A stretch of DNA of 64,000 bases from Leucoraja ocellata. Taxonomy: Eukaryota. Made by a program: the position numbers and the translations under genes. The first letter of the stretch is position 1. The number at the start of each line of letters is the position of its first letter. Shown here one piece after another: positions 1,527 through 63,520 of this stretch. The notes under the pieces are model-generated. The model worked only from the letters and a program-made list of their open reading frames with translations, was not told where the DNA came from and searched no databases. Location of the stretch: assembly GCA_036785375.1 (NCBI GenBank), contig JAWMAR010000471.1, forward strand, positions 744,001 through 808,000. Direction: 5' to 3'.

Positions 1527-4249
1527 ATGGGTTGGAAGCGGCACTTGGAAGTTGAATATTATTATTATCCAATTCTGGCAACAATCGGAGTACCCGGTAG
1601 GTGAAGGGAAAGCAGTAAGTGGGACTGAGACGTGGGATGATGTGTTGATAAAAACATTGTTAAAGGTAAAGTGTAAATAGTGTGCGAAACACGGGGATGC
1701 TAGACTGCATTCTTCAGGTTAGGGCGGTATTAACTAGAAAATGTTTGTTTAAGAAATTACTGCAGTTGCTGGAGAAATCGAAGCTAGACAAAAATGCTGG
1801 AGAATTAGACAGCGGGTGAAGCGGCATCTATGAAGCGAAGGAATAGGTGACGTTTCGGGTCGAGACTGATCAGTCTGAAGAAGGGTCTCGACCCGAAACG
1901 TCACCTATTCCGTTGTTAAGCTATTGGATCGTTCGTCGTTCATAGGATCTGGCACAGGTTAATTCTCTTCAGATTCAGGTTTAGGTGCATTGTTGTCATG
2001 TATTTCCGGGAGCTGCAAAAAGCATTGGTTTGCAAGAAATCCAAATTAGATCAAATACTATTAAATATCAGTACAAACAATTCAATCTCAGTAACAGGTA
2101 GTGTAAGAGGGGAAATCGGAGTGCAGAGCGTAGTTCAAGTTTGGGAGCGCACTGCAGCGTATCACATCCACAAAGCCCAATGTCCGCAAGGGGATATAGG
2201 TGAAACGGCAATACCCTCGCATATGGAAGAGCGGCTCAGAAGCCTGACAACAGAGGGAAAGAATCGGTTCTGGAGTCTGATGGTGCGAGCTTTAAGCCCT
2301 CTGTATCTTCTGCCCGACGGGTGCAGGGAGTAGAAGGAATGAGCGGGGTGAGACGTGTCTCCGTTTCCAAGGGATTGTGAAGTGCAAACGCAGTCAACAG
2401 TGCGGAGTCTATTTCGTAATAAGGAGACGGCATCTTCCAGAACCCTGCGCAATTTACTCTTTATAGGACATATATGTCCCCACAACAAGCTGTGATACAC
2501 CCAACAGTATGCGTTCTATGCTAATCTGCACAGCAAGTTTGAGTAATCAGAGGCAGGTCAAAGTTCCTCAGTCTTCTCCGTAAAGGTGTTGGTCTGCCGC
2601 TGGCTGTCCTTTCGATGTGGTCGTCCAACAAACATCGTTGGTAGTATTAACTACGAGGAACTTGACGTCCTCAATCACTTCCACTTCAGCACCGTTGTTG
2701 CTGACCGGTGATCCACCGCATTTCCTGATATCGATAACTTGCTCCTTGGCCTCGTTGATACAGACATAGAGATTGTCATCATCTGGGAGCTTGTGGGAGC
2801 AGTCACAGCCGCATTTGGCCGCGGGGTCGTGAGTGCATGGGAGGAAGAACCCGGAACCGGATGAGACGTCTTTATGCGGCACCGTTGTAGAGAATTATTG
2901 TGGAAGGGGTGTTATAACTACTACTCTCTGATTAATGTACGTTCATTTGAACATTAGAAGCTGGTGTGCTGATCGCTAGGCTCGGGAGCTTATCAATGGG
3001 TTGGATGGGAGTAGTGTTGGGAATGGGAATGTGACTTTCGACTCCTTGCTGCCCGGCTGTTCCCAGGAAGGGTTTAGGTCCAGGACGATGGCGTCTGATA
3101 CGGACATGTTGCTGCAATATGCAGTCTGCGGTGCAACAATTGTGGCTGGGAGACAGCTCACGCTGCCTGCGTAGACCGCTGCTACGTAATCCGCACAGCT
3201 GCTTAGCACGCACCCATGTTTGTATGTGGGCCAGTTTTTTTAGAACAAATAAGCCAAGCGTACCCAAGTTTGACCCACGCTTCCAAATGAGCATCGTGTT
3301 TCCCTTACATGTAACGACAGTTTTCTCTTTTCCAGTGAACTTGTTGGCGATTGTGATCCTGTCCAGCAGAAATTGTGGTCTCGCCAAATGCACCACTCGG
3401 TACCTGGTGGCCATGGCGACTGTGGACCTCTCGGTGATCGTCTGCGAAGTGATATTACAACGGATTGCTGACCTTTACTGGGCGCACTCATTCCTCTTCC
3501 ACAATACTGTGTGCAGGTCCATTATGTTCCTCGCTCCCGCGGCCGTTGCCTGTTCTGTTTGGCTCACGGTCGCTTTCACATTTGATCGCTTTGTGGCCAT
3601 TTCCACTCAGAATCTGAGAACCAGATACTGCACCGAGAGAACCGCGCTGGTGGTTATAGTGACCCTAACTGCGTTCTTCTGTTTACTGAGCGTCCCCTGG
3701 CCGTTTGCGTACAATTATTATGTCAGGGATCAGCAGGGTATGCAGTGGGGCTGCCTAATAAGATATCACTTTTATAGCCTATCCTCGTGGATAGCATTTT
3801 CCTGGACTCAACAGCTGCTAGTCCCAGTCATTCCATTTTGCTTGATTATGCTAATGAACGTGCTCACTGTCAGACGCATTTTAGTGGCCAGTCGTGTCCG
3901 CAGGAAACTCCGCGATCTCAGTAGTGAGGACCCCGAAATCGCAAACCGCAGACGGTCCGTAATTTTACTCCTTGCAATCTCCAGCAGTTTTCTGCTGCTC
4001 TGGGGCACAACTGTGGTATATTTCGTTTTATATCGAATTACGAATGCATTTATGTCCAGGGGGTTGAAGAACCCATTTCCAACATTTGAACAAACTGGAA
4101 TTCTGCTACAACTGTTGAATACCTGCACAAACACGCTCATTTACACCGTGACCCAGAGGAGGTTCAGAGAACATCTGCTCCAGGTACTCATGTACCCCTT
4201 CACCCTAACTGTAAGCTTAATAAAATCGAGAACACCAGATGTACATTAA
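1527..4249 (+). CDS. Class A GPCR, GPR139/GPR142-like family, copy 1 (exons 1527-1596 and 3336-4249)
   Basis: Exon 1 is ATG..CCC G|gtaggt and reads MGWKRHLEVEYYYYPILATIGVP. The phase-1 acceptor ttttctcttttccag|TG continues VNLLAIVILS. The ORF has seven hydrophobic segments, FTFDRFVAI (DRY-like), a TM3 Cys/ECL2 Cys pair and NTLIY in TM7. AATAAA at 4681. Family call is from motif recognition. Confidence 0.9.
1840..1911 (+). ncRNA. Penelope-type inverted repeat with minimal hammerhead-ribozyme-like core (1875-1902) in GPCR1 intron
   Basis: CTGAAGA-A-GGGTC-TC-GACCC-GAAA-CGTC resembles CUGANGA/stem II/GAAA/GUC. It lies within a 27-bp perfect inverted repeat (1840-1866 vs 1885-1911). Activity not shown. 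Confidence 0.55.
1965..3200 (-). mobile_element. Decayed Rex1/Babar-like LINE fragments in GPCR1 intron (shared with introns of copies 2 and 3)
   Basis: Minus-strand RT and C-terminal remnants (HPAHSFY..PSGRRYR..RTIRLQNRFFP). Confidence 0.6.
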
Positions 4250-5934
4250 CATTACAATACTAATCCCTCCGTGAGTGAGTGAAACAATTAGGTAATGAAG
4301 GGTGTTCTCTGAAAAGTGTCCGCCTCAATTTTCAAAAAAATAGTTTAGAAATACAATGTGAACGCGTCCCCTGCACTGGAATGCACATCTCGCCATCTAT
4401 TTAACATGCGACACGGGCGCATTGTTCAAAGAGCCCAGTGGGAAGGGCGGCCATGTGGAACCGAGTGCTATGTTGTATTGGAACAGACCTCCAATGATTC
4501 AGGAATTGAGCCTCGCCGTTAACTGTTTCCACATTCCTTTGAATCCAGCGGTAACTTCTCCAACACGCAATGAAAACAGACATAGAGTTATGGTCCTAAA
4601 CATTGCATGCTCTATTACTCTACAATTATTTGAGACGTTCCATGTTTACGTATGTAAATGCCCAGTGCGCCAATGTGTTTAATAAAATTCTTGCTGCAAC
4701 AGTTATGTTAATGAGAGTTCCATTTTATATTTGTTTCTCGCACTGAATGTAATGCCTCGTTGCTTCTTACAGAGGCTTTCGGTTTTCAGTACAATTAGTA
4801 ACTCTGCACCAGATGCAGCCAAAGGTAGTGGGTGTTATTGATACAAGTTGGCATTACAAATTATATATTTAATGCAAACAGTGTGTAACAGCGAGTGTCC
4901 AGTAGAGGGCGGTAAAGTGAGTAAGTTCGCCTGTGTGGTAACGAGATGCTGAAAATCGATTTGCATTAATGTCCCACCTCCTTTGATGCAGCGCCGACGC
5001 TGGAGCTCTGCCTATTTGAGATTCGAGGGAGTGCTCAGAGAGTCGGGTTTATCTCCTCTTGCAGGGCAAGATAATGTGAGAAATCCATTAATTTATTTTC
5101 ACCACCGATGGCGGCTGAGATTTGTATAGCTCCAAATTTGACTTGAGTACTCTCTCCCCAAATTCTCCACTCCCGACGCGGTAACGATTACATTTTTACA
5201 TATTCTGATTGACGTTTATCCCCCCGAGGCCGTGAATACATACCTTCTGGCTCGGCTAGCAGTGATCAGCTTCGCTGAAGATGTCATCCTAATTTAACGT
5301 TATTCGCGATTAAAGCATTAAAAATGCCAACTTTCATAAGATTTTTACATATCCTGATCCACACGTATCCCCTCCAGCCAGAGAGCACATTCGCTGACCA
5401 TTTTATGCTTTATTTCTAGACATTACTGATTAAAGTTTTAATACAAATCAAAAGATTGAATTTAAAACTACTAGCTTCAACTGATGACGTCACGATGGCT
5501 CGGCTAGCAGTGATCAGCTTCACTTACGTTCGGGAACGGCTTGAGTTGGAGGACCACGCCTCCTGTGGTGGCCACGGGTAGGGAACGGGTGCGTTGGGGG
5601 AGCGACCCTTTCGACCCTCTCAAAACTTTACATACCTCAACCAGATCTTCCTGCAATTTCCGACATTCCAGAGGGAAATAATCCAAATATGACCAATCTC
5701 TCTCTGCACCGCTAATCCAGCCACCATTCCGGTAAATGAGCAACTGCGGCTCTAAAACACGCCGTACTTAGTAAATGTGTCCATCTTGCCGAATTGGCAA
5801 AGACATTCACTAATGGCTTTGCTGCTGGTCACCAATTTGTACAGCGTGCAAGTTAGTTTACGTTAGTTAGTTTACGACAGGTGTCGATAGGGTAGACTGT
5901 CAGAACTTTAAATGTCCCAACGGGCGGTTCTAAC

Positions 5935-6385
5935 CGGTATGGCTGGACTGACATATGTTGAAATAATGGAGCGACTGGGCTTGTATATACTGGAAATTAG
6001 AAGGATGAGAGGGCATTTTATTGAAACATATAATGTAATTGAGGGTTTGGACACGCTCGAGGCAGGAAACATGTTCCCGATGTTGGGGGAGTCCAGAACC
6101 AGGGCCACTGTTTAAGAATAAGGGGTAACCCATTTAGATGGAGATGCGGCAACAAATTTTCTCACAGAGAGTAATGAGCCTGTGGTATTCTCTGCCTCAG
6201 ACGGTGGTGGAGACCGGATCTCTGGGTAATGTCAAGAGCGAGCTAGATAGGGCTCTTAAAGATAGCGGAGTCAGGGGATATAAGGAGAGGGCAGGAACGG
6301 GGTAGTGATTGGGGATGATCACATTGAATGGCTGTGTTGGCTAGAAGGGCCGAATGGCCTACTCCTGCACCTATTGTCTATTGAA
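5935..6385 (+). mobile_element. CR1 LINE 3' fragment
   Basis: GMAGLTY..RLGLY.LE.RRMRG..IETY ORF2 C-terminus and CR1 3' UTR (gggccgaatggcctactcctgc). Confidence 0.8.
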
Positions 6386-6619
6386 AAGAAGCTAATCAGC
6401 TTATTTCCAACTGTGTCCTATCTGCAGGACCTTCTCTCTCCGCTTCCAGACCCATAAACTAATTTTTTGCACAAACACATGTGTTACTTTTTAAGCTAGT
6501 GGGCTCGACTGTGGCAAGTAAATTCACATGCACAACCCTCGGCAACGTGCAGGAATGTTTCGTGGAATACCTCCGCTAAATTCGCATAAAACTGCATGAT
6601 CTCCCCTTGCTAAATAGCC

Positions 6620-7080
6620 TACAACTTATTCTTAAACTGTGGTCCCTAGGTTTGGACTCTCTCAACACCGGTCACATGGTTCCTGCCTCCGACGTGTCCA
6701 ATCCTTCAATAATCTTTTATGTTTCAAAAATACCCCCTCTCATCCTACTAAATTCCAGTGTATACAAGCACAGCCGCTCCATTATATCCACATATGACAG
6801 TCCCGCCGTCCCGGGAATTAACCTGGTGAACCCACGGTGCACTCCCAACCCACGGTGCACTCCTTCAATAGCAAGAATGCCGTTCCTCAAATCTGGAGAT
6901 CAAAACTGCACACACTACTCCTGGTGTTGTCTCACTAGGGCCCTGTACATCTGCAGAAGGACCTCTTTGCTCCTATACTCAACTGCGCTTGTTATGAAGG
7001 CCAACGTGCAATTAGCTTTCTTCACTGCCTGCTGTACTTGCATGCTTACTTTCAGTGAGTGATGTACAATGACCCCAGGT
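6620..7080 (-). mobile_element. CR1 LINE ORF2 fragment
   Basis: Reverse complement of the CR1 [13 protein letters not shown] region. Confidence 0.75.
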
Positions 7081-7689
7081 GATACCCATCACCTTCTCAA
7101 GTGCAAATGTTTCCCTCCCGTTCCTGTTAAATATTTCCCCTCTCACCATTAACCTAATTCCTCTGGTTCCCGATTCTCCAACTCTGGGCAAAGGACACGA
7201 TACGAGATACATTTATTTGTCACATGTACCAGTTGCTACAGTGAAATGTGTGGTCAACATACAGCCATACAATAAAATAAAGAACAGTGATTCTCCAAAC
7301 ACCCCCTCACTGTGATGGATGTTTGTGTGGAATTGTGTTAATTTAGTGTATTTTTTTTATTGTTGGTATGACTGCAGGACCGTAATTTCGTTTGAGCCTG
7401 TGTTTCAATGACAATAAACGGCATGCTGATTCTGACTCTGATTCCGATGACTGCCTGGGTTTTCTCCGGGTGCTCCGGTTTCCTCCCAGACTCGAAATAC
7501 GTACAGACATATAGTTTATTTTTAATGTCTGTAAATTGTAACTATTCTCCTGTTTGTAGTAGGGTGCTGCTGTCTGGGGTGATCGTTGGTAAGCGCTGAT
7601 TGTGTGGGACGAAGGGCCTGTGTCCACAGCGGATCTCTGATTTCTTGAGCCTATTTTCCTTGGGTGCAGGAGGCGGAGTGTACGAGACA

Positions 7690-8315
7690 CCCCCTCACTG
7701 TGATGGAAGGCAAACGTATTTTCACTTCGCTGTTCTCGGTTCTTTATTCTTCTCCCACAGTCAAGCAGTCAAACTGCTGCATCGAGCTGATCGAGGCTTT
7801 TTATGTTAGAGCCCTCAGCGGTTGACGGTAAGTCCAACGTCCGTTGAAACCGCGCCGGGCGATATAAGGACCTGCTACGGGTCGATTTAATCCTCTCGAT
7901 TCGGTCGGGAGAAGTTACCGTTGCGGGAGCTCCAAAAAGAGGTCTCCTACCAGGGACCTGCGAGCTCCCGCTGTTACCGTCCACAGAGCCTGCAGACGGA
8001 GACGCCGAAGCTCCGAAGTCCTAGTCCGCAGGCTCCGCGACTCGAGACCCAGGTCGATTCCGGTTGGAGGCCGCCGGCTGCACAATGTTGGGCCCCAACG
8101 ACAACGGAGACTTGACAGGGAAAAGGTCGAATATTCGTACAGGGAAGAGATTTAACCCCCCCCCCCCCCCCCCTCCACGACGCCCCCCCCCCACACACAC
8201 ATATACACAGCTAAAAAGTATATAAAACGAAACCAAAACAAACACCTAACGAGACAAGAAGAAGGGAAAGACAGACGTACAGCAGAGGCCGCTGCCGCGA
8301 GGCGCCGCCATCTTG
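7690..8315 (-). mobile_element. GC-rich non-coding repeat starting AAGATGGCGGCG (paralogue at 13670-14620)
   Basis: Two inverted copies in the window. YY1-like 5' end, and in the right copy a GACAATAAA..(GATTCT)n tail like the Rex1-type LINE ends in this window. Confidence 0.5.
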
Positions 8316-8559
8316 TCCAATCGTCAGAACTTGCAACATCGATACTGACAACACGGTACTCAGGTTCTAACCCGGGTGTCCGACAGTGTAATGCCTCTGT
8401 CCCTCTTAGGAAACTTGAACGGAAAACTCTGGTGACCTTGCCCGCAACCCAAGGTTTCCATGAGGTTGCCAGATGTTTTGGTTAATCGCCTGGAAAGCCT
8501 CGAGCTCGATCGACCGAAGCGTGAGCTGCATCTACCGACCAAACATCATACACGACCCA

Positions 8560-8560
<1 letters not shown>

Positions 8561-12101: not shown

Positions 12102-12572
12102 ATGCGTTTCCTCGGCATCTGTGTCGTGTGGGGAGCGTTTCTGATAGGTAATTCTGGATCAATATTTTCAGTTCCCCTCGCCCTACTCAGTGAGATTTTG
12201 GCTTGAGAAGTGCAACTTTATAGCACTCAGGTATCTGTTACTATCTAAATATATTTATTTTACAGTCACCGTTCACGGAGAATCTGTCACACAGCCACTG
12301 CCCTCGGTGACGAAGACAAAAGGAGAAGCGGTGACTTTAACCTGCAACTATGATACCACATGGACAGCATATGCTTTATTCTGGTACCGACAATATCCAG
12401 GCATGCAGCCCGAGTTTACTGTGTCGAGAGACAACGGCAACAATGAAGATAAGGCCCAATACGCTGACACTCGTTTCTCTATTGAGCTCAATACCGCGAC
12501 TAAGTTCACCAGCTTGAGTATCTCAGGGCTGGATCTCAGCGACTCTGCAGTCTATTACTGCGCACTGTGGCG
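12102..12572 (+). CDS. T-cell receptor alpha/delta-type variable (V) gene segment (leader 12102-12147, V exon 12266-12572)
   Basis: Leader MRFLGICVVWGAFLI G|gtaatt, 118-nt intron ending tttacag. V exon VTVHG-ESVTQ..VTLTC..LFWYRQYPG..RFS..SLSISGLDLSDSAVYYCALW has the Ig V-set Cys/Trp/YYC hallmarks, no stops, and an RSS directly after it. Confidence 0.9.
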
Positions 12573-12610
12573 CACAGTGATGGAAACAAGTTAAGCCCCT
12601 TACAAAAACA
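12573..12610 (+). other. V(D)J recombination signal sequence (23-class, 22-bp spacer)
   Basis: Perfect heptamer CACAGTG at 12573-12579, 22-nt spacer, nonamer ACAAAAACA at 12602-12610 (8/9 match to ACAAAAACC). Confidence 0.9.
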
Positions 12611-14431
12611 TCGCTTTTGTCTTGCTCTCTGCTCCGCTCATGCGGTAGGATGTGCCTGCTTTCCTTTTCTTTCTCAGTTGTCGGTTTGCTTTCATTGTGT
12701 GCAGGTGTCCTGGTGGTTTTATTGTTTCCAACTGTGAGCTGCTTCTCCGGAATCCGTTTCCATAACATTAGCCGCGAGCTGCAGAGAATTACAAGAACTC
12801 TTATGACAGCGGGATATAACATGTGACCAGAGATCTGAAACGTGTGTTCTGTTTCATTCTCTCTCAGTCCTGGGTAACCTGGTTAATAACGGCAGAATTT
12901 TATGTTTTAATCAGACAAACTAGGTTGTCACTGGATGGAGGATTGGCTGGCCCGGAATTGTCACAATTACGTTAACCAATTCCACTTCACCAACACCCTG
13001 GCAGACTTTCTAATTTCAGGTGGTCATTGGCCTTCACTTATTGCAGAAAAATCGTCCGGGACGCGGGAAGAATAGGAAGTCAATAAACCAAACTATTTAC
13101 CGCAAATGGCGGATGCAGTAATGCAGATGGATAGTTCACCATTGGGCCTTGCTAAGTAATCCAGATCTTTGTCGCTGGATATATCACTAGACACCAGATG
13201 CATAGCTACAGTAACTGCTAAAATAAATACCCTGATGGATATGCCCGTGAGGTAAGTAAAATTAAACCCTTTGAATACGCCTGGCGCCTTTCCCAATGGG
13301 TGACTGCACAAATGTGCAAATACCTTAATGCAGTAATTACTGTTTTTGTTCCATGAGCCGGTACTGAATTACTTCTCTGCATCGCTATAGTCTGGGAATT
13401 CCTCCACAACAGCAACATGACAACACCTTCACTAGATCATAGCTCTACTATACTCCCTCGAGGGACTTCGCAAAAAGGATAGTTTGAGCAGTGTAGGAAT
13501 AAATTAGGCGGCATAGTGTCGTAGCTGGAGAGTTGCTCCCTTACACTGAAGACCCACCGGAAGGTAAACTAATTCCTAAGTGGGACAGGGGCATTACACT
13601 GTCAGAGTCTCGTTTAGATCCTGAGTACGGTGCTGACAGTAACAATTTAGTAAATTCTCCCGTTTGGACAAAATGGCGGCGCCTCGCGGCAGCGGCCCCT
13701 ACGGTCTGTCTGTCTTTTATTTCTTTTAGCCTTGTTAGGTGTATGTTTTGGTTTATTAGCTCTGTTTGTGTGTGTGGAGGGAGGACGTTTGCAGGGGGGG
13801 GGGGGGTGGGTGTGGGGCGGGGGAAGGGGGGCTTTTAAATCTCTTCCCTGTACGGGGACTCGAACTCGACCTTTTCCCTGTCGAGTCTCCGTTGTCGTTG
13901 GGGACTAACATCGTGCAGCCGGCGGGGTCCAATCGGAATCGCCCCGGGGCTCCAGTCGCACACCCTGCGGACTCACCATCGCGGAGCGGTCCGACGTCGG
14001 AGCGCGGAGCGCTGTGGCGACGCGCGGCTGCGACCCTGTGGGCGGTAACATCGGGAGCTCGCAGGTCCCTGGCGGGAGACCGTTTTTCGGAGCTTGCGCA
14101 ACGGCAACATCTCCCGCTCGAATCGAGGGGTTTAAATCGACCCGTAGCAGGACTCTCTATCGCCCGACGCGGCGCGGTCCTTACCATCGCCCCCCGGGGG
14201 CTCCAACATCAAAAGCCTCGATCAGCTCGATGCAGCAATTTGACTGCTAGACTGCGGAAGAAGAATAAAGGACAGAGAAGGGAAGACATAATGCTTTTGC
14301 CTCCCATCACAGTGAGGAGTTGTTTGGAGATTCACTGTGATGGATGTTTGTGTGCAATTGAGATAATTTTTTTTTTTTGTTGTTGTTATGACTGCAGGGA
14401 CGTAATTTCGTTTGAACCTATGTTTAAATGG

Positions 14432-14578
14432 CAGTCCAACCTCACGGTGTGCATGTGGTGAGCAGCAAACAATGATGCATGTCCTCAACAAAGACTCAAA
14501 GGAGGACTTGTCACCCTTCATACAGCAGATCAAGAGGCAACTGCTTGGCTAAAGGACTTTGCATTAGCTAAATAAATA
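14432..14578 (+). mobile_element. Short 5'-truncated LINE 3' end (Vingi/I-clade-like) inserted in a repeat
   Basis: CACGEQQTMMHV..GGLVTLHTA..ATAWL remnant, (TAAA)n tail and approximate TSD aatggca/aatgaca; absent from the paralogous 7400 region. Confidence 0.45.
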
Positions 14579-15304
14579 ATGACAATAAACCGCATTCTGA
14601 TTCCGATTCTGATTCTGATGACTGCCTGGGTTTTCTCCGGGTGCTCCGGATTCTTCTCAGACTCGAAATGCGTATTTTTTTAACATCTGCAAATTGTAAC
14701 TTGTTTCCAGCTTGTAGTGCAGTGCTACTGTATGGGGTGATCGTTGGGATGCGTAGATTATGTGGGACGAAGGGCCTGTGTCCACGGCGGACATTTGATA
14801 TCTTGAGCCTATATTCATTGGGCGGAGGAGGCTGAGTGTATGAAATCATTATCGATTGGACAACGTGAATTACACGTGAATCACAGTGGGAAACTTTGAT
14901 TCTGCTGTGTGGGAATGTTTTATGTTGGACTCTATCGTGTGTTGTGTTCTTTATTTAATTGTATGGTTATATGGTGACCACACATTTCACTGTACCAACT
15001 GGTACATGTGACAAATAAATGTATCTTGTATCTTGTACTTTACCCAGAGTTGGAGTATCAAGAACCAGAGGAATTAGGTTTTATGGCGAGAAGGGAAATA
15101 TTTAACTGGAACGGGAAGGAAACGTTTGCTCCTGAGAAGGCGATGTGTATCAATTGGGGTCCTTGTACATCACCCACTGAAAGTAAGTATGCAGATACAG
15201 CAGGCAGTGGAGAAAGATAATTGCACGTTGGCCTTCATAACAAGTGTAATTGAGTATATGAGCAAAATATGGTCATTCTGATTCAGATTCAGATTCTGAT
15301 TCAC

Positions 15305-16213: not shown

Positions 16214-16771
16214 TATGTGAATATAATGGAGCGGCTGGGCTTGTATACACTGGAATTTAGTAGGATGAGAGGAGATATTTTTGAAACATAATAGATTATT
16301 AAGGGATTGGACACGTTGGAGGCGAATTCAGCGGAGGTGTTCAACGAAACGATCCTGCACGTTGCCGAGGATTGTGCCTGTTAATTTACTTGCCACAGTC
16401 GAGCCCCCTAACTTAAAAATTAACACATGTGTTTGTGCAATAAATTAGTTTATGGGCCTGGAAGCAGAGAGAGAAGATACTGCAGACAGGACGGAGATGG
16501 AATATAGCTGATTAGCTTCCTTTGAATAGACAATATGTGCAGCAGTAGTCCATTCGGCCCTTCGAGCCAACACCGCCATTCATTGTGATCATGGCTGATC
16601 ATCCCCAATCAGTACCCCGTTCCTGCATTCTCCTCATATCCCCTGACTCCGATATTTTTAAGAACCCTCTCCAGCTCTCTCTTGACAGTATCCAGAGAAC
16701 CGACACCCTGAGGCAGAGAATACCACATACTCACCACACTGTGTGAATATTTGTTTCATCATCTACATCTA

Positions 16772-44952: not shown

Positions 44953-45086
44953 NNNNNNNNNNNNNNNNNNNNNNNNNNNNNNNNNNNNNNNNNNNNNNNN
45001 NNNNNNNNNNNNNNNNNNNNNNNNNNNNNNNNNNNNNNNNNNNNNNNNNNNNNNNNNNNNNNNNNNNNNNNNNNNNNNNNNNNNNN
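44953..45086. other. Assembly gap (N run)
   Basis: 134 N bases. Confidence 1.
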
Positions 45087-49800: not shown

Positions 49801-51558
49801 GCTTGTAAGCTATATATATTAACTTTTCTGACCTATAGGTCATGTTGTCATTCAACAATGTATTTATAATATTGATAGACAAATGCGTTCACGTTGCATT
49901 GGTGAAATTAATTCTATGTATTTTTCCCTTCTGCCTCACAAATCGAGAACAACGCACAGTACAAAAGGATTCTGTTTCAGAACTTACGCTATGACATGAT
50001 TGTTGGAACTTGGATGGTGTTTTTCCAGTACCCAGGATTATTATCAATCGGAGCCGGGCACAAATCAACTGTGCCATGAGAAAATAAGCTCCTGAGCTGC
50101 AGATTCTGCGCAAGCCTCTGGGACTGGGATTGTTATTCTGAACAATCAACACCACGTCAGCATCCTTTTGAACATTCACTGGACTACAACACTTGTCCAG
50201 CATCAAGAGAAGTGCTGCAGGGATACAGGGAAAACCTACTCATCCGATACAGGTACTACAAACTGGAATTCCTGGAAAACCGTCATCACGATGAAGGATT
50301 CGGCTACAGTACCATCAACACAGCTAGAATTGCCCTGACTGTTCTTTTTCAAAACAGCTTCAGGACAACAGGTATGGGGTCACTGGCTGGTGGTAAATTT
50401 GAAGGGTATTAAAATTCTAAAACCCTAGACCAAGTACACCCACATGTGGGATGTCACAATGGTTAACCATACTTCAGGGGATACTCACCAGCCAGAGCCC
50501 TAAACCTGAACCTTCTATGCACTAAAAACATATGTTGAAGGCACACTGAGCAGCACAGAGGGTCCAGTCACTACTCCTATTTCAACTGGACACCATGCTC
50601 ACAGCTTCAGACCAGATATCGATCATTTGTCCAGGGAATGGTCAAACCAGACCAGGAATACCTTATCCAGTCATAAAACCCGGGCTTACCCGCCAGAAAA
50701 CACGGTAATGTACCAAGACCCTTTTTTACCTTACATAGACACAACCTAATTATGCGAGGGAGATGAAAAGCCTTGTGGGTTGGTCACAAAAAACCTTGTG
50801 GTCGGGTAACAAGCCTTTTTTGAAATGGCTCAAGCAGGTTAAAGCTCCTGGGATAAAACTAACATGTCAAAGTTGTCATCCCACAGGAGAAGCTTCCACG
50901 TCAACGGCAAAAGAATGGACGTACCTATAAACCACATCCTGGCTCCAGCAGAATAGTGGGGGTAAAACGTTCAGAGAAATAATTTATTATAAACTGTTGA
51001 CAAAACCTGTTTTTTCATTTGCAGGAAAGATTCCAATCTGCAAATATTCAAATTAGCCAAAGGGAGCATTTAAATTTCTTCAGTGTCTATTGTAAAATAC
51101 CATTGGGTTTTCTATAACAGAATCATTGGTTGGTTACGATACACACTTCCTCCCTCAAAGACTTCGGCAGTGAGTGTAGTATAACTGTTACACGGTTTGA
51201 AATCACAGAGCTTTGAAATCTTCACGGAATCACTCACGTGACTCCGAAGTAAAATAGTAAGATTAAACGAGAACTTACCAGTTTGAAGTTTGATCTGTAT
51301 TTTATGAGGAGTTACGATGAGGGTTTACGTGCCCTCCGCTCCCACCCTCGTTACATGGATCAAACTGATAATTGATGTATCTTTATTCTTTACTATGTTA
51401 CTTCAAATACTTGTGTCTATCTGTGATTCCACACCGCTGCTTTGAAGTATGCCGCAACGCGTCCTGGGACGGGCTTCTTCACGTAAACCCTCATCGTAAC
51501 TCCTCATAAAATACAGATCAAACTTCAAACTGGTAAGTTCTCGTTTAATCTTACTATT
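46888..51558 (+). mobile_element. Second DIRS1-type element with decayed ORFs and intact termini/ICR
   Basis: Starts TTTTACTTCGGAGTCACGTGAG; ICR ~51220-51332; 3' ITR plus extension ends CTTACTATT. Broken gag at 47953-48950 and heavily deleted or mutated pol and YR remnants. Confidence 0.9.
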
Positions 51559-53175
51559 ATATGTTTTAATTTCAGGTCATCCAAGTAAGATTATTTTATA
51601 TTTGTTTCAGAATGGTTCAATCTACGATAACTGAACATTTCATTCAGTTCTCTTAATTTTTAAGAAGAATTTTGACAGCACACGATCACAGCTTTTTTGT
51701 CTTGTCCATAGAAAATCAATAGGGAACAAGATGCTAATTTCCGAGTATGAAAATGGCCATAACGTTTTAAATACTTGAGATATGAAAGTGAATTAGGTGT
51801 CAAATTAAACTTATTTTTATGCTTTATCTGATGGGATAAATTACAAACTTGATTTTTTAAATCTCAAAATTGTGTAACATTGCTACAATGAGCCGTCTGC
51901 AGGGGAACCACACAGAAGAAGCTCTCGATCCTGAGAACAAAGCTTTTGAGCTTCACCCTCTTCGTGATGCTTACGATTAGAACGGTGAAAGATGCTTGCG
52001 ACGTAATCGCTCAGAACTGATATAGGTTTTAAACAATGATTCTGGTACCGCCACTTTAGTTACTTCACACTACACCTTGGTAGATCTGTAGCGCCTGCGC
52101 CAAAGACCCTATAGTGGTGCAAGATAGGCCACTCCTGCGAAATGCAATGGGCTGACGTGTAGTACGCTACGGAGAGGAGCGTGGGCTTTTTTCCGTCCAT
52201 TTCAGTAACCGGACCCGACCCGACTCGCAGTGTAATCAACGTTGCGGGGTAACAGTTTGTGTGTGTGTGATATAGAGTTAGATTCATAATTCTGTTAATT
52301 CTTGTTAAATAATATAATTTGACTCTGGTATTTTTTTAATGCGTTTTAAATCATTTCTTTTAATGGACCATAAGCTGTTTTTGAGTTGATTTTGTAGTAA
52401 CCGGAAGCTACCCGACCTTTGGTCTGCGCTGCAGCAATGGAGATGGGACATTAATGCAAAGCGATTGTGGGTCTCTGGCAAACCACGCAGACGAACTGAC
52501 TTTACCGCCCTGTATGAATAATATCCACTACCTTTGGCTGGATCCGGTGCAGAGTGAGTAATGTTAATGAAAACAGGAAGACTCTGTAAGTAACAATGAG
52601 GCTACTGTAAGTAGAATGAACATTCAGTGCGAGAAGCAAAAATAAAATGGAAGTTCCATTAAAATGAATGTTGCAGCAATAATAGTGAGATTAAACGAGT
52701 ACTTACCAGTACGAAGTTTGATCTGTATTTTATGAGGAGTTACGATGAGGGATTACGTGAAGAACCCACCCAGCGCGCAGGCGCGGCATACTTCCAAGCA
52801 GCGGTGTGGAATCACAGATAGACACAAATTGAAGTAAAGATAGTAAAGATTAATGAGACATCAGTCCGAGTTTGATCTATACAATGAGGGTGGGAGCGGA
52901 GGGCACGTAATCCCTCATCGTAACTCCTCATAAAATACAGATCAAACTTCGTACTGGTAAGTACTCGTTTAATCTCACTATTTTACTTCGGAGTCACGTG
53001 AGTGACTACGTGAAGACTTCAAAGGTCTGTGATTTCAAACCGTGTAACAGTTATATCACTCACTGCCGAAAGATCATCGAGGGAGGAAGTGGTATCTAAA
53101 GACCAACAAGTTTGTTAGTTTTAAAAAACAAATGTTTATTAACAGCAACAAAAAATAGCTCCCCTGGGCTTTAAA

Positions 53176-54186
53176 TTATAAATTTGCGGTTTCTAAAATT
53201 CTCTCCGCAAAGACGTCCTTCTCCATCAGCTGTTTTCGGTAGAATTTTTGGAATGTCGATTCCCTTGACCATCCCGCTGCACTGAGGATGTGGTCTAGGG
53301 GAACCTGCAGCCGATCCGCCGCTGAGGTGGACGCTGCCCTGGTTGAATGGGATTTAAAAACATCTGTGTTAATCCCTGCCATATTAAGGACCTGTTTCAA
53401 CCATCTGGATATTGTCTGGCTGGTAACCCGTCCAAAAGGCCTTTTATGGCTGACCCATAAGGCTTTTTCTCTCCCTCTAAGAGTTTGGGTTGTGTCTATG
53501 TAATGATAAAGGTGGGTCACCACACACAGCCTAGGTTCTGGAGGGTATGCCCGGAAGATCAACGGGGAGTTGGATGTACCTGGTCTGCTCTGTTTGACCA
53601 ACCCCGGCATGGTAAAAGTAATGGTATCTGGGGTGGTCACCATGTGGTCCAGACTTAACTGATGCAGCGACTGAACCCTCTGAGCAGAGACAAGCGCCAT
53701 GAGCATGAGGGTCTTGTAAGTGGACTGTTCCAGGCTCAGGGATCCCACCGGAGGCCAACCTCGAAGGTGTGACAATACTACACTAACATCCCACACTTGG
53801 GTGTATCTAGGTGTAGGGGGTTTGGTGTTATAAATCCCTTTAAGGAGTTTGATAACCAGAGGGTGGGATCCAACACTATGCTGTCCTATGGGCATAAGGT
53901 ATGCGGACAGGGCGCTCCGAGCTGCATTGATGGCACTGTAGCTCATCTTTAGGTCATGGTGCAGGTGGGCCAGGAACTCCAGCACATCCGAGATCGAAGC
54001 CGTCTTGTAAGATGTCCCTGCTTCCAGACAGTACTGTTCCCATTTCCTGATGTAGGTCAGGTACTGTTTCTTGGTGGAAACTCGCAGGGATGCCGACATG
54101 GTGGTGATTGTTCTCTCTGATAACCCCAATCCCCGGTAAGGTCTGTTCAGAATCTGGAAACCAGGAGGTTCAATTTTTGGTGGCAT
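53176..54186 (-). CDS. DIRS tyrosine recombinase
   Basis: SAQRV, HSTR and AAGWS..TFQKFY catalytic motifs of the lambda-integrase superfamily. Confidence 0.92.
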   Translation of the reverse strand: MPPKIEPPGFQILNRPYRGLGLSERTITTMSASLRVSTKKQYLTYIRKWEQYCLEAGTSYKTASISDVLEFLAHLHHDLKMSYSAINAARSALSAYLMPIGQHSVGSHPLVIKLLKGIYNTKPPTPRYTQVWDVSVVLSHLRGWPPVGSLSLEQSTYKTLMLMALVSAQRVQSLHQLSLDHMVTTPDTITFTMPGLVKQSRPGTSNSPLIFRAYPPEPRLCVVTHLYHYIDTTQTLRGREKALWVSHKRPFGRVTSQTISRWLKQVLNMAGINTDVFKSHSTRAASTSAADRLQVPLDHILSAAGWSRESTFQKFYRKQLMEKDVFAERILETANL

Positions 54187-56081
54187 GGATGACTAATGCC
54201 AGTTACCGGGTGAGTCAATAATTGGGGGTGGTTGTGAAGGACCATAGGTGTCTCTACCACCATGTCGTGGAACATTGGGAACCATGGTTGGGTAGGCCAG
54301 TCGGGCACGACCAGAATGCCGGAGGCTGAGTCTGCCTGAATTTTCTGGAGTACCCGACTGATGAGGCAGAAGGGAGGGAAAGCATAGAAAAAGAAATTTC
54401 CCCAATCCAGCGTGAAGGCATCTACCGCTGCTGCCTCTGGGTCTGGTTCCCAAGCCACATACATGGGTAGTTGGTGATTTAGTCTAGACGCAAACAAATC
54501 TATATCTGGCGTACCATATTGCTTGACAATTCTAGCAAATAGTTTCGGGTCCAACATCCATTCGATGTTGTCGTTGAATTTTCGTGACCTGGTGTCCGCC
54601 ACTAAATTTAGCTTGCCTGGTAAATAGGCAGCTGATAGCCAAATATGTCTCTCGACACACCATTGCCAGATTATAGTAGTCAATTTGTCGCATGATACTG
54701 ATTTTATGCCACCCATGTGCTGGATATAAGATACCGCCGTTGTGTTGTCAATCATAATTCTAACATGCACATGCTGCATTTCAGATGCATATGCTTTTAG
54801 CCCATAAAAGGCGGCGAGCATCTCCAAGAAGTTAATGCCCAGTGTTTGTAGTAGCGATGCCTCTGAGTTAGTCCATCTGCCACCTGTGCTGTCTATGGAG
54901 TTAGTAGCTCCCCAGCCTAAAGCACTGGCATCCGTTGTAATGGTTATGTTAGGATTGGTGACGGCGATAGGACTGTGACTGTGCCAAATATTATCGACCC
55001 ACCACTGAAGTTCTGATCTGGCTTCAGTGGGTAACTCCATTTTGCGGTCATAATGCCCCCTATTAAGACGTAGTGCATGACTCCTTGCTCTTTGCAAATT
55101 TTGATAATGCAAGGGCCCATATTGGGCAGCCGGGAATGCTGCTACTATAGAGCCAATGACTCTGGCTACGTGCCGTATCCTTGGTTGCGGTATAGCAATT
55201 AAATGGTTACAAGCTTCGATGAGTGAAAGTTTTTTGTCTCTGGGCAGAGTGACAGTCATATGGATAGTGTCAATAGTGAAGCCTAGGTAATCCATGTTAG
55301 TAGTAGGCTCCAATATTGATTTATCTGGGTGTAGGATGAATCCCAAAGTTTCAAGGAGTTGTTTAGTGGCTAAAACTCCTGCGACAGCTAGTTCCCTTGT
55401 TCTCCCTAATATGAGAACATCGTCCAGATAGGCCACAACTAAATGTTTTTGTTCTCTCAATTTTTTCATGGCCACTTTGAGAATGTTTGTAAATAATCTG
55501 GGAGCTGTCGTTAAATCATTGGGCAAGGCTCTGTACTGCCATAGCTGGCCCATCCAGATAAATTTCAGATATTTGTAATAATCATTATGAATGGGTACTA
55601 AATAGTAAGCATCCTTGATATCTATGCTTGCCATGTAGTATCCCCTGGAGATCAGTTGTCTGGCAGTGACAAATGTCTCCATTTTGAAATGTTGATACTC
55701 AACAGACTGATTAAGTGACGTCAAATCAATAATAATGCGACATCCACCATCTTTCTTGGATTTGAGAAAAATATTTGATACAAAATCGTGCGGCTCGTGT
55801 GTGGTCATTTCTATGATGCCTTTAGCCACGAGCCTATCTAGTTCAGCTTGTCCTTCTACCTTCTCAAATGCTGAGGGAAGGAATACCCTTTGGGGCATGT
55901 GCTGAACTGGCGGTTCTATGCCTGGTTTGAATTCAATTTTGTATCCACTGATACTGTTGAGTATAAACTTATTGTTAGTTAGGGAGCACCAAACATGCTT
56001 GAAGAACCTCAAACGTCCTCCTGTTAATACAACAACCTTTGTCTGTGTATGTTGGCAGGAACCAGACCCACTTACCTCCAT
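54147..56081 (-). CDS. DIRS Pol: reverse transcriptase, RNase H and C-terminal adenine-methyltransferase-like domain
   Basis: SIDIKDAY and YLDD (RT); TTDAS..GWG, INFLE, DNTTA (RNase H); DLFAS and YAFPPF (MT-like). Confidence 0.93.
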   Translation of the reverse strand: MEVSGSGSCQHTQTKVVVLTGGRLRFFKHVWCSLTNNKFILNSISGYKIEFKPGIEPPVQHMPQRVFLPSAFEKVEGQAELDRLVAKGIIEMTTHEPHDFVSNIFLKSKKDGGCRIIIDLTSLNQSVEYQHFKMETFVTARQLISRGYYMASIDIKDAYYLVPIHNDYYKYLKFIWMGQLWQYRALPNDLTTAPRLFTNILKVAMKKLREQKHLVVAYLDDVLILGRTRELAVAGVLATKQLLETLGFILHPDKSILEPTTNMDYLGFTIDTIHMTVTLPRDKKLSLIEACNHLIAIPQPRIRHVARVIGSIVAAFPAAQYGPLHYQNLQRARSHALRLNRGHYDRKMELPTEARSELQWWVDNIWHSHSPIAVTNPNITITTDASALGWGATNSIDSTGGRWTNSEASLLQTLGINFLEMLAAFYGLKAYASEMQHVHVRIMIDNTTAVSYIQHMGGIKSVSCDKLTTIIWQWCVERHIWLSAAYLPGKLNLVADTRSRKFNDNIEWMLDPKLFARIVKQYGTPDIDLFASRLNHQLPMYVAWEPDPEAAAVDAFTLDWGNFFFYAFPPFCLISRVLQKIQADSASGILVVPDWPTQPWFPMFHDMVVETPMVLHNHPQLLTHPVTGISHPCHQKLNLLVSRF

Positions 56082-56083
56082 GT

Positions 56084-57307
56084 TTATTTGTGGGGGCGTT
56101 TTCGATAGGTTTGGCCCAAGGTTGTCCGTGTTGGTGCTGTGGTGGGGCGGCGCATCTTCCCACGGCTCCGCCCTGGGCCCCGCTCTAAAAAAGAGCTCTG
56201 GGGGTAGTGGGAGGCGGTCACCAGGCTTTCACCAGCTCGGTACCTGCTGGTGGATGCCGAGGCGTGCTGCCAACTGGGTGTCTTCACCCTGCTCGGTCCT
56301 GGCGCTGCCCTCATGAGGCCTACAGGTTTGGCCGCCTCTTCCAACTCTTTGAGTTTCTTGGCCAAGTCTGCACCAAATAGCAGCGCCTCCCGTTCCGGCG
56401 CTGGAGCTTTGCAGAGGCCTGCGTATTTCGGATTGAGGGCAGGCCTGATGTTATCCCGCCGTAGGCTGTTGAGCTCGTACGTGGTGTTGCACATCAACGC
56501 CAGTGCATCCTGCTGGGGTATGGAGAGCTCTTCGTTCCCGACGGACCGAGCAAAGGCGGTGATGGCTGCAGAGTGGAGCTTCAGGACCCGCTGCATTTTT
56601 ACCTCCTGAGCCCTGATCTGCTGCCCCAGCTGGTTCCATATTTGCCCGTTGACCGTTTTCACCCGCAGCGCCTCGCAATTCTCTGGCGCTGTATAGGTAT
56701 CAAGGGCCTGCTGGACGACCTTGTCCTGCAGAGGCTTGTTGGAAAGCCTATTGATACTGGCCGCCATTCTAGGTGGTAGTACCATCCCGGTCGTTGGGGG
56801 CGCTGCGTACCGACCCACTACACCCAGTAGCTCTTCTTCTAGCACGCCCGGCATACTGATGTTGTCGTCCGCCTGCCCTTGGGATAGGCCAGCCCAGTCC
56901 TGGCCTCCCTTACTGCCCTCGAACAGAGAGGGTACAGAAGGGTGTGGTGATGGTAAGGAGGAGGCCAAAGCCCGTCCTCCTGGGAGATGCCTAGCCTGCA
57001 TCTCCTCATCAATCATCTGTTCCAGGAGCTGCCTCATGCAGCTGATGCGGGCGTCTCCCCGTTTCGGTGGTGGAGAGCGTTCCCGTTCCTCCGACGAATC
57101 AGAGGACACCGGCCGGTCGGTTTTATGTGTCGCCTTCCTCCCTGTGCGGGGCGTCGATATCGGCAGCACAGGGGGCGGCTCGGTGTCGGGTGAGCGGGAG
57201 CGTTGAAATGGCTCCTCCGCTACGAGTGGCTGCCGCCCAGCTATGGACCCCTCCTCGGGTGGAGTTGGGCAGGCAGTCCTTCTGGCTGGTCGCTTTCGGG
57301 TGGCCAT
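56084..57307 (-). CDS. DIRS ORF1 (Gag-like)
   Basis: Long ORF from ATG (MATRKRP) in the first position of the element; homologous to 47953-49037 of the neighbouring DIRS. Confidence 0.8.
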   Translation of the reverse strand: MATRKRPARRTACPTPPEEGSIAGRQPLVAEEPFQRSRSPDTEPPPVLPISTPRTGRKATHKTDRPVSSDSSEERERSPPPKRGDARISCMRQLLEQMIDEEMQARHLPGGRALASSLPSPHPSVPSLFEGSKGGQDWAGLSQGQADDNISMPGVLEEELLGVVGRYAAPPTTGMVLPPRMAASINRLSNKPLQDKVVQQALDTYTAPENCEALRVKTVNGQIWNQLGQQIRAQEVKMQRVLKLHSAAITAFARSVGNEELSIPQQDALALMCNTTYELNSLRRDNIRPALNPKYAGLCKAPAPEREALLFGADLAKKLKELEEAAKPVGLMRAAPGPSRVKTPSWQHASASTSRYRAGESLVTASHYPQSSFLERGPGRSRGKMRRPTTAPTRTTLGQTYRKRPHK

Positions 57308-57759
57308 AATTCTCCACCGTTGAGCGACTCTGTAACACAAAAAAGGCACTTACCTGAGGTCTTGTCTTTATGCTGCCGCTGGAGAGCCTGGCTCCAGCTG
57401 CTGCCACTGTTGCACTGCTGACGTAATGCCGCGCCTGCGCGCTGGGTGGGTTCTTCACGTAGTCACTCACGTGACTCCGAAGTAAAATTGTGTTTACCTT
57501 TGTGTCATGGGCATAAGTAGACACGGAACGTTTCAAAGAAAGTAAAGGAATGGAGGATGAAAAGTTCAGCACCATGTCGCTATGCCTGTTGTCATCGCGT
57601 GCTCGAGGCGTTACGGCTGGACTCAAAGGAAGGTGGAAACAGTTAACGGTGAGGCTCAATTCCAGAGACATTGAATGTATGTTCCAGTGTATCATAGCGC
57701 ACGGCTCCCCGTGACTACACTCCCGACTGAGCAATTGAACAATGTGCCCGTCCCCCATG

Positions 57760-58836: not shown

Positions 58837-58849
58837 CTGGGAACGAAGA

Positions 58850-60002
58850 CTATGAATGCAAACATGCCATTCGCTGTCTACACTGCCTGCTGCACCTGCA
58901 TGCCTACTTTCAATGACTGGTGTACCATGACACCCAGGCTTTGTTGCATGTCACCTTTTCCTAATCGGCCACCCTTCAGATAATAGTCTACTTTCCTATT
59001 TTTTTCCACCAAAGTGGATAACCTCATAATTATCCACATTATACTGCATCTGCCATACATTTGCCCACTAACCCAGCCTATCCAAGTCACCTTGCAGCCT
59101 CCTAGCATCCTCCTCACAGCTAACATTGCCCCCCAGATTCGTGTCATCCGCAAACTTGGAGATGTTGCATTCAATTCCCTCATCCAGATCATTAATATAT
59201 ATTGGAAATAGCTGGGGTCCCAGCACTGAGCCTTGCGGTACTCCACTAGTCACTGCCTGCCATCCTGCAAATGACCCGTTTACTCCTACTCTTTGCTTCA
59301 TGTCTGCCAGCCAGTTCTCTATCCACATCAATACTGAACCCCCAATACCATGTGCTTTAAGTTTGCATACTGATCTCTTATGTGGGACATTGTCGAAAGC
59401 CTTCTGAAAGGCCAGATATAACACATCCACTGGTTCTCCCTTATCCACTTTACTAGTTACATCCTCGAAAAATTATATAAGATTCGTCAGACATGATTTA
59501 CCTTTCATAAATCCATGCTGACTTTGTTCAATGAATTCACCACTTTCCAAATGTGCCGCTATCCCATCTTTAATAACTGACTCTAGCACTTTCCCCACTA
59601 CCGATGTTAGACTAACTGGTCTGTAATTCCCCGTTTTCTCTTCCCCTCGCTTTTTAAAAAGTGGGGTTACATTAGCTACCCTCCAATCCTCAGTAACTAC
59701 TCCGGAATTTAAAGAGTTTTGTAAAATTATCACTAATGCATCCACTATTTCTACGGCTACTTCCTTCAGTACTCTGGGATGCAACTCATCTGGCCCTGTG
59801 GATTTATCGGCCTTTAGTCCATTCAATTTACCTAACACCACTTCCCGGCTAACCTGGATTTCACTCAGTTCCTCCCTTGTTTGACCCCCGGTCCCCTGCT
59901 TTTTCCGGTAGATTATTTATGTATTCCTTAGTGAAGACAGAACCAAAGTAGTTATTCAATTGGTCTGCCATGTCCTTGTTCCCCATGATAAATTCGCCTG
60001 TC
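58850..60002 (-). mobile_element. CR1 ORF2 fragment abutting the GPCR4 splice acceptor
   Basis: [24 protein letters not shown]. Confidence 0.88.
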
Positions 60003-60008
60003 GGAGGA

Positions 60009-61832: not shown

Positions 61833-63520
61833 TCATTTTGAACCGGTTTTGGGAACTTTAACGAACTTTCTAATTAGCGCGACGGGGCATTGAAGTGCGT
61901 GAAGGAACTGCTCTCTGAACTTCCCCTGGGTGACGGTGTAAATCAGTGTGTTTGTACATGTGTTCAACAGCTGCAGCAGGACTCCCGTTTTTTCGACTGT
62001 TTCTAATGAGTTAGTGAAAGCTCTCACCCACATTACGTTGATACATCGAGAGTACACAAAATGAAATACAGTTGTGACCCAGAGCAGGAGAAAGCTGCCG
62101 GAGATGGCAAAGAGTAATATTATGGACCGTTTACGGCTTTCCGTCTCCGGGTCTCCACGAGTGAGATCGCGGAGCCTCCTGCGGACCCGATTGGCCATTA
62201 CAATACATCTCGCCGTGTGCGCATTAAACAACAAGATGAAACAGAATGGAATAACTGGGGTCAACAACGCCTCGGTCCAAGAAAATGCGATCCATGCTGG
62301 CAGGACATAGAACTCCGGTGGGATTCCGCAGCCCCACAGTAAACCATTATACACGTAGAGAGGATTGTAAGCGAAAGGCCAGGGAGCGTTCTGTAAGCAG
62401 ATGAAGGTACTCAGGGTCACAATAATCACCGCCGCGCTTCTCTCGGTGCAGTATCTGGATCTCAGATTCTGTTTGGAGATGGCCACGAACCTATCAAATG
62501 TGAAAGCGACCGTGAACCAAACGGAACAGTCTACGGCCGCGGCGGACAGGAAGAGAATACACTTGCACACAGGAGCAATGAACAGGATTGAGTTCATCCA
62601 ATAAAGATCGGCAATTTGATTTAAAATCACTTCGCAGACAATCACGGAGAGGTCCGCCGTCGCCATAGCCACCAGGTAACAGGTGATGCATTTGGAGAGA
62701 CCGCACTTTCCTCGGGACAGGATCACAATGGCCAGTAGATTCACTAGGGGAGCAAGAAAGAAGCAATGGTGATTATGGGGACAAAACTTCGAGTTGAGTG
62801 ATGGATGGTCATATATTGTTATTTTGCTCGCTTTCGTAAATTGTGAAATGGACGGAGATTTCCTTTGGTTTGAATGTGATCCCTGATACTGCGCTCACGA
62901 ACAAACATTCCACCTAACAGTGAATTAATCTACTGAGAAACAGTTTGAACGGAAGCGTAGAGTGAACAGTACGACTGAAGTTGGTGTTAATCGGGTGCAC
63001 ATTTCGGATCAGCATTTGCTTATTGGTTTGCAACATTTGCAGGGGGCGGTGTACAGTGGAGAATACCTGCACGCGATGCGGCGATCGTTGAAGAAAGTCC
63101 ACAATGAAAATTAATAGAAGCCATAAAAAGGGAGAACATATGGAAACAAAGATAGAGCGGGAAATACAATCGCCCGAGGTTTAAGCACATACAGCCTTTG
63201 TCGCTCAACCGACTTTGGCTGTTACTTCACTTAACAATATTGCAAGGATCATTCTAAACGCCAAACGGTGAAATGCAATGAAACCATACAATAACTATAT
63301 TATCTTCTGGTTATTTCCCCCAAACCCCATTCCCTGAATGCAGCCGAGTATCCAGTACATGTTGTCACATTATTTTAACTTAATCTTCAACATTACCGCT
63401 TCCCAATCAATTGGCCTCACGGTTATCCCACATACAGCCGTCAAGAGACATACCGGGTACTCCAATTGATGCCAGGATTGGGTAATAATAATATTCAACC
63501 GACATGTGCATCCGACCCAT
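61833..63520 (-). CDS. GPR139-like GPCR, copy 5, more divergent (exons 63520-63454 and 62743-61833)
   Basis: Exon 1 is 67 nt, MGRMHMSVEYYYYPILASIGVP G|gtatgt. TAG acceptor; intact 7TM ORF with FTFDRFVAI and NTLIY. Confidence 0.9.

Follow-up and report, generated by a model that had tools for sequence, protein, structure and literature searches.

In vertebrates, the olfactory receptor (OR), TAAR, V1R, and V2R repertoires are clustered gene families with birth-and-death evolution, a variable ligand pocket, and O/E-like and TAATGA promoter motifs. In the catshark, 2 canonical OR, 6 OR-like, 3 ORA, 3 TAAR, 2 TARL, and about 32 V2R genes were reported (PMC11979771), so the small OR repertoire of cartilaginous fishes, which the sequence-only reading of the present DNA took as established, is confirmed in print for this species. 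Here, we describe a family of class A G protein-coupled receptors (GPCRs) that resembles these repertoires, starting from a 64,000-nucleotide stretch of Leucoraja ocellata DNA (contig JAWMAR010000471.1, positions 744,001 to 808,000; hereafter the window) that holds five of its copies. The family is far larger than the catshark OR set, its pocket is repertoire-like, and it sits under a misleading automatic name. Unlike OR, TAAR, V1R, and V2R genes, it matches only the Pfam 7tm_1 profile, carries a phase-1 intron within the first transmembrane helix (TM1), and has a peptide-receptor ancestry. We regard a chemosensory repertoire as its best explanation, with a probability of about one half, and infer the ligand, G protein, and cell type. 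If this is true, the count and history of vertebrate chemoreceptors change. The corrected gene count, a gene conversion mosaic, a T-cell receptor (TCR) V segment in the window, and a matched comparison with a single-copy sister gene are new here.

The class A orphans GPR139 and GPR142 (PDB 7VUG and 9M42), which are activated by L-Trp and L-Phe, have N5.58, W6.48, and the loss of P7.50 (lost in most members) in common with the family. GPR139 differs from it in having no C3.25 and, in a profile alignment, an extracellular loop 2 (ECL2) about 12 residues shorter. According to the available part of PMC8514136, GPR139 and GPR142 go back to a common origin with the FMRFamide, myosuppressin, and MIP receptors. 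In nematodes, the srw chemoreceptors descend from FMRFamide/myosuppressin-type receptors and have been speculated to detect environmental peptides (PMC2576165, available part). Like the chondrichthyan family, srw is expanded, clustered, and subject to birth and death, and is derived within the peptide-receptor clade that contains GPR139 and GPR142; some chondrichthyan members and nearby Atlas clusters even carry weak Srw Pfam matches. However, srw expanded independently in another phylum and its ligands are speculative; it is comparable to the family but does not belong to it. In a review table, "NMOGPR" and "Orphan 139-like" appear next to GPR139 and GPR142, as orphan relatives within one clade; they are entered as "unclear," with no ligand, and no shark expansion is mentioned in the accessible passages of that review (PMC5207463). 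Judging from these entries, bony-vertebrate relatives of the family were probably noticed before. By description only, the two entries may correspond to the amphibian gene introduced below or to a Latimeria/teleost lineage.

For the family itself, no description of the chondrichthyan expansion was found in the literature searched, with most subscription papers and some supplements outside the search. The accessible text of the catshark sensory-genomics paper (PMC11979771) has no word beginning with "GPR" and no "GPCR" passage on this family, the accessible passages of PMC12294341 do not include it, and a text search of skate-genome supplements returned no "gpr139," "receptor 139," or "gpr142." When exon 2 of the first window gene, gene A, was used as a query, 732 proteins (90% clusters) among 3907 candidates were obtained at E ≤ 0.001. 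In the best 120 of the 732, 119 were named from chondrichthyans (sharks, rays, skates, and Callorhinchus), and the other one co-clusters with a Leucoraja protein. The closest named match among these 120 was a Leucoraja protein (87%). After 50% clustering, 92 representatives reached 1e-30, and in each species the family genes were spread over many different large contigs. A Rhincodon protein combines a family-type seven-transmembrane (7TM) region with zinc-finger domains and is probably a gene-model fusion.

The nearest bony-vertebrate relative is another orphan, automatically named "probable GPR139" (Xenopus tropicalis XP_031757816.1, Pleurodeles XP_069092602.1, and Acipenser RXM35349.1). It was gathered by searches with a salamander match and with a profile of 15 relatives. 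The gene was represented by 21 amphibian rows from all three orders (frogs, salamanders, and caecilians), one sturgeon row, and one reedfish row, with one 90% cluster per species listed, and is apparently single-copy. Among the best 120 of 183 matches (7995 candidates scored), no teleost or amniote rows of this gene were found; among the matches listed, its rows were followed only by chondrichthyan family members (94 named and 3 unnamed) at 27 to 36% identity. It shares with the family the motifs WLTVAFTFDR, CC..LK..YC, and DPE..RR, the C3.25 and ECL2 cysteines, and N5.58. Unlike the family, it has a nearly frozen pocket, keeps P6.50, has N at 2.50, and shows a single cluster for each species listed; its identity to family members is about 30 to 36%. 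No characterization of this orphan was found in the literature searched.

In a careful tree of 32 rows, the chondrichthyan family was monophyletic (98/94), and the single-copy gene (support 100/100) was placed as its sister at 100/97. An approximately unbiased (AU) test speaks against taking this placement as settled, as the alternative in which the amphibian gene joins the Latimeria/teleost lineage was retained at P = 0.065. The careful tree agreed with a quick one of 72 rows that had long invertebrate branches; both trees were built without true GPR139 and GPR142. Thus, the amphibian, sturgeon, and reedfish gene is likely the sister of the chondrichthyan family. Because Xenopus and sturgeon carry this likely sister, the question can be put to the test, and the sister would give the ancestral state before the shark pocket diversified. 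The window genes grouped with Leucoraja and Amblyraja proteins (100/99) in the 32-row tree, and in the 72-row tree they were nested in a subfamily that includes Callorhinchus and has batoid- and skate-specific expansions. Since a holocephalan belongs to it, this subfamily has been kept since the chondrichthyan root. Other GPR139-like orphan lineages occur in coelacanth, teleosts, and amphioxus; these are also automatically named GPR139 and are clearly unlike human GPR139.

A profile search of all six frames of the window found five copies (A to E), located where the sequence-only reading had put them, and no sixth. Four of them, A, B, C, and E, are intact two-exon genes with a first coding exon of 67 to 70 nt, a GT..AG phase-1 intron within TM1 (1739, 1377, 1392, and 710 nt, respectively), and an open frame of 325 to 327 amino acids. 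Gene A lies on the plus strand, with coding exon 1 (70 nt, phase-1 donor) at 1527 to 1596 and exon 2, the 7TM body, at 3336 to 4249 (spliced product of 327 amino acids). The other three lie on the minus strand: gene B with exon 1 at 22347 to 22416 and exon 2 at 20062 to 20969 (325 amino acids), gene C at 37874 to 37943 and 35568 to 36481 (327 amino acids), and gene E at 63454 to 63520 (67 nt) and 61833 to 62743 (325 amino acids). A, B, and C are 90 to 91% identical to one another; E, which represents an older subfamily branch, is 62 to 63% identical to them and 80% identical to an Amblyraja protein, and copy D shows 58 to 68% identity. Two assembly gaps (42025 to 42296 and 44953 to 45086; 406 N in total) lie between genes C and D and could conceal additional copies or V segments.

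All four intact genes have N1.50, D2.50, the C3.25-ECL2 cysteine pair, DR3.50, P5.50, and N7.49/Y7.53, and all lack W4.50, P6.50, and P7.50. The 7tm_1 profile scored 72 and 62 bits, well over its cut-off of 30.5, and was the sole match; none of the OR, TAAR, V1R, and V2R Pfam profiles matched at E ≤ 0.001. An AlphaFold model showed a seven-helix bundle with short ECL2 strands (pLDDT of 85.9). Its nearest folds were peptide receptors with near-equal scores, including CCK1R and NTSR1 (TM-scores of ~0.7), and GPR139 was absent from the best 50 matches. The sequence-only reading had described five paralogues sharing a short exon 1, the phase-1 intron, and a 7TM exon; this applies to A, B, C, and E and fails for copy D, for which no exon 1 was found. 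Its nearly invariant motif from TM3 to intracellular loop 2, TVAFTFDRFVAIS.QNL, was recovered in the form given, and the five differing ECL2 strings that it quoted are all present in the window.

The family-wide comparison gives the stronger evidence on where the variation lies. Pocket variation was scored at 27 canonical positions (numbering anchored on gene A) in 191 family rows, with lengths of 290 to 400 kept, and in 26 rows of the single-copy gene. Pocket diversity was 0.64 in the family and 0.07 in the single-copy gene, while the inner helices were equally diverse (0.30 and 0.28). When pairs were matched at an inner-helix distance of 0.2 to 0.3, which takes out the frog bias, pocket differences were 0.64 in 8040 family pairs versus 0.01 in 107 single-copy pairs, although the pairs are not independent. 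For example, a comparison of A with E gives 25/114 differences at inner sites and 12/27 in the pocket, and one of Xenopus with Pleurodeles gives 28/114 and 0/27. E differs from A, B, and C at 11 to 12 of the 27 pocket sites. By contrast with the pocket, the signalling motifs were 96 to 100% conserved over the 191 family rows. Thus, the single-copy gene varies in the way of a receptor with one fixed ligand, and the family in the way of receptors that have many ligands or none that constrains them. In the single-copy gene, R2.61, Y3.32, F3.33, K6.51, K6.55, R7.35, and N7.39 were invariant in all 26 rows, and the basic residues among them (R2.61, K6.51, K6.55, and R7.35) suggest an acidic ligand.

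Among the young copies A, B, and C, change favored the outer face. Amino-acid-variable codons made up 28/145 on the outer side and 10/176 on the inner side (Fisher P = 0.0002), and the contrast with synonymous-only changes (9 outer and 13 inner) was significant (P = 0.015). Within these genes, 8 to 10 of 40 loop positions differ, in ECL2, ECL3, and the helix rims. Under the GY94 codon model, omega (the ratio of nonsynonymous to synonymous rates) was 0.28 for the inner side, 0.90 for the outer helices plus the N-terminus, and 1.89 for the loops, and the partitions differed (P = 4e-6). The claim that variation is concentrated on the extracellular side therefore stands for the outer-face excess in A, B, and C and, family-wide, for the pocket against the single-copy control; an omega above 1 does not reach significance.

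The copies have been reshaped by local duplication. A and B lie tail to tail within an interrupted inverted duplication, whose left arm (166 to 8412) carries A and whose partner arm (13573 to 23776) carries B, while a direct duplication links B and C over about 5 kb at 90%. In the sequence upstream of exon 1, the divergence of A and B is 2.6%, and C stands apart at 11%. This changes from the intron on, where B and C form the nearest pair (intron divergence of 5.7%, compared with 8.5 to 10% for the other pairs). Labels for the odd one out along A, B, and C were clustered, with 197 changes versus 269 expected (P = 0.0001; P = 0.0009 with neighbors collapsed), which indicates that the three genes are mosaics formed by gene conversion or unequal exchange. 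Non-coding columns varied among A, B, and C at 0.12 to 0.13 per site. Together with the pseudogene described below, the family size, and the tree, these duplications and exchanges bear out the proposed birth and death and lineage expansion.

Between the two duplication arms, with A and B on either side of it, lies an intact TCR alpha/delta-type V segment with a leader and a recombination signal (12102 to 12610, plus strand), which the sequence-only reading had not mentioned. It consists of a leader exon at 12102 to 12147, a V exon at 12268 to 12572 with an open frame, a Pfam V-set match, and both cysteines and the tryptophan, and a 23-type recombination signal at 12573 to 12610 (the heptamer CACAGTG, a 22-nt spacer, and the nonamer ACAAAAACA). 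The best full-length single-domain PDB matches of the V exon were TRA and Vdelta1 chains, and this similarity is the sole basis of the alpha/delta assignment. No further V segments were found in the 64-kb window.

The promoters of the four intact genes are alike. Each carries TATAAA at −81 from the ATG, a single TAATGA, and two candidate sites that depart from the O/E (EBF) consensus by one mismatch, one of them at about −127. In the gene A proximal promoter (1335 to 1452, plus strand), TAATGA lies at −192 and the O/E-like matches at 1357 to 1366 and 1400 to 1409. In the gene E promoter (63595 to 63676, minus strand), TAATGA lies at −136 and the O/E-like matches at 63667 to 63676 and 63638 to 63647. 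The two O/E-like sites of gene B and those of gene C lie at 22533 to 22585 and 38061 to 38113, respectively (both minus strand). By shuffling, two such sites had P ≤ 0.0015 per promoter; the V segment promoter has none. A and E have retained blocks of promoter sequence in common. Motifs of the O/E and TAATGA classes characterize OR promoters and enhancers in the mouse (PMC8213819, available part).

On the chemosensory explanation, hundreds of class A GPCRs would have arisen in cartilaginous fish from one ancestral orphan receptor, and each copy would likely be tuned to a different polar ligand, so that the family forms a repertoire of sensors for outside chemicals. The ligands may be small peptides or amino-acid-like or amine compounds that enter between ECL2 and ECL3, in view of a very short N-terminus (about 7 residues), an open, polar pocket beneath the variable ECL2 and ECL3, and a wider clade made up of peptide receptors. 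The peptide-receptor ancestry together with the srw precedent suggests small-peptide or amino-acid-like cues in particular. The receptors would signal via a G protein, with calcium as the probable output, in line with the assays used for GPR139. The core on the G-protein side (D2.50, DR, P5.50, N5.58, N7.49, and Y7.53) is conserved. Expression may take place in olfactory cells or in chemosensory cells dispersed through epithelia, under the control of the homeodomain and O/E-like motifs of the promoters. The setting among TCR V segments would likely be that of a co-duplicated neighbor and not reflect a role in T cells. OR genes lie inside the mammalian TRA/TRD locus, which is a parallel to this position. 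In its boldest form, which we put forward only tentatively, the family would be a fifth vertebrate olfactory-type family, with hundreds of genes in sharks, rays, and chimaeras, derived from a GPR139/142-like orphan that survives in frogs and sturgeon as a single frozen copy, and one gene per cell chosen via homeodomain and O/E elements. Vertebrates would thereby have followed the srw family in turning a peptide receptor into an environmental sensor. This would resolve why animals famed for smell seem so OR-poor.

Several observations weigh against a chemosensory role. The loop omega above 1 was not significant (P = 0.057), and the site-model check proposed in the sequence-only reading was negative (M1a versus M2a, P = 0.39); both tests used three sequences with gene conversion and have little power, and relaxed constraint fits the codon data too. 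The non-coding divergence of A, B, and C exceeds the synonymous rate of the codon model, so that the loop omega would drop further. In addition, these genes differ at only 1 to 3 of the 27 pocket sites, and conversion homogenizes them. The promoter motifs were picked post hoc, after the sequence had been seen, in promoters that are homologous, and over the whole window the O/E-like pattern showed hardly any excess (30 versus 22.7; 8 of 100 shuffles reached as many). EBF has a role in B cells as well. A TCR V segment lies next to the genes, so that an immune role suggests itself. In a catshark brain plus olfactory library, the 50 most abundant and specific genes include no GPCR, according to the available part of PMC11979771, although the same absence holds for V2Rs.

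These points leave room for other explanations. Duplication-prone DNA, including a TCR V region, could have multiplied the copies by largely neutral birth and death, with the pocket relaxed in redundant, unconstrained genes. The outer-face omega near 1 and not significantly above it, the inverted duplication, gene conversion, and pseudogene within 64 kb, and the dense transposable elements would all suit such a process. However, the inner side is under purifying selection even in the young copies (omega 0.28), four of five copies are intact, and the signalling motifs are almost invariant in the 191 rows. A subfamily kept since the chondrichthyan root and promoter blocks kept from A to E also weigh against it, and we consider the neutral explanation unlikely. 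Alternatively, the family may be an immune sensor repertoire, in which granulocytes, mast-like cells, or T cells detect microbial or damage peptides, like the FPR or MRGPR families. Fast change on the outer face is equally what pathogen-driven change would produce, EBF-type sites would suit B-lineage cells, and an intact V segment with its recombination signal lies between A and B. If this were true, a large new innate sensor family would be linked to the TCR locus. Such linkage is, however, not general, since the family genes lie on many contigs per species; moreover, the A and B arms leave the V segment out, and a single V segment was found in 64 kb. Spleen-specific ORs in the catshark (PMC11979771) illustrate that expression there is possible without an immune repertoire. 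An immune role thus seems improbable to us.

A further possibility is that the automatic name is right and the genes are multiplied GPR139/GPR142 orthologues, or endocrine neuropeptide receptors, for L-Trp and L-Phe or one endogenous peptide. Probable or putative GPR139 is indeed the name of 116 of the 120 matches listed, and a family profile of 89 sequences returned GPR139 first in the PDB (E = 4e-19, 72 bits; next 5e-12); the amphibian gene also returned it first among characterized receptors. Activation of GPR139 by Trp and Phe requires F109, H187, W241, and N271, as mutagenesis showed (PMC5430874, available part), and over the whole family, His occupies the H187 position in 31% and Tyr or Phe the F109 position in 51%. 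The window genes, however, keep only one of the four, W6.48 (W241); F109, H187, and N271 are replaced by P/A, Q/E, and I/V. Taken by itself, gene A gives a match to GPR139 with E = 2e-5, which is no better than its match to CCK2R, and other bony-vertebrate orphans are much closer: the family profile gave 204 to 223 bits for amphibian, 187 to 203 for Latimeria/teleost, 159 to 163 for sturgeon, and 144 for amphioxus sequences, compared with 72 for human GPR139. With one fixed endogenous ligand, the pocket would also be expected to stay frozen, as it has in the amphibian gene; the family pocket varies. This explanation is highly improbable. The comparisons place the window genes within the wider GPR139/142-like clade but not among GPR139 orthologues, and the database name misleads. 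"GPR139-like," as they had been called, is apt in that GPR139 is the nearest characterized receptor; the likeness is distant, and the nearest bony-vertebrate relative is a different orphan gene.

Copy D, recognized by GYFHMDNN, consists of exon 2 only (58836 to about 57760, minus strand). Neither the window as a whole nor the interval between D and E yielded an exon 1 for it. A 1-nt insertion near 58690, seen in comparison with B and E, shifts the frame, and C3.25 and Y7.53 are replaced by R and C. Because exon 1 is missing, the frame is shifted, and both residues are lost, copy D reads as a pseudogene. Its splice acceptor is adjoined by a reverse-transcriptase fragment of the long interspersed nuclear element (LINE) type (about 58850 to 60001, minus strand), which we take to be CR1-like from a motif.

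RNA reads were mapped from 7 of 13 raw-read runs, using 1 to 25% of the reads of each and no tissue labels, and the result weighs neither for nor against expression. Exon 2 of gene A reached a depth of 4.5 in one run, with reads also over the intron side, and 2 in another; its exon 1 had a depth of about 1 in one run, and another run had no reads on the exons. A repeat resembling a short interspersed nuclear element (SINE) lies at 1740 to 1915 in intron 1 of gene A, in a region common to B and C. Other copies of this repeat contributed thousands of reads in each run, which could conceal a splice joint. For gene E, 13 to 32 reads per run were obtained, mostly partial and less than 90% alike, as from other paralogues; some had intron-like loose ends, with no joints.

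Two related elements lie in opposite orientations at about 46900 to 51600 (plus strand) and about 52700 to 57500 (minus strand). The right one, a DIRS-like retrotransposon, has long open frames for a gag-like protein (421 amino acids), a reverse transcriptase (693 amino acids), and a tyrosine recombinase (338 amino acids). It looks young, and the left one is more broken.

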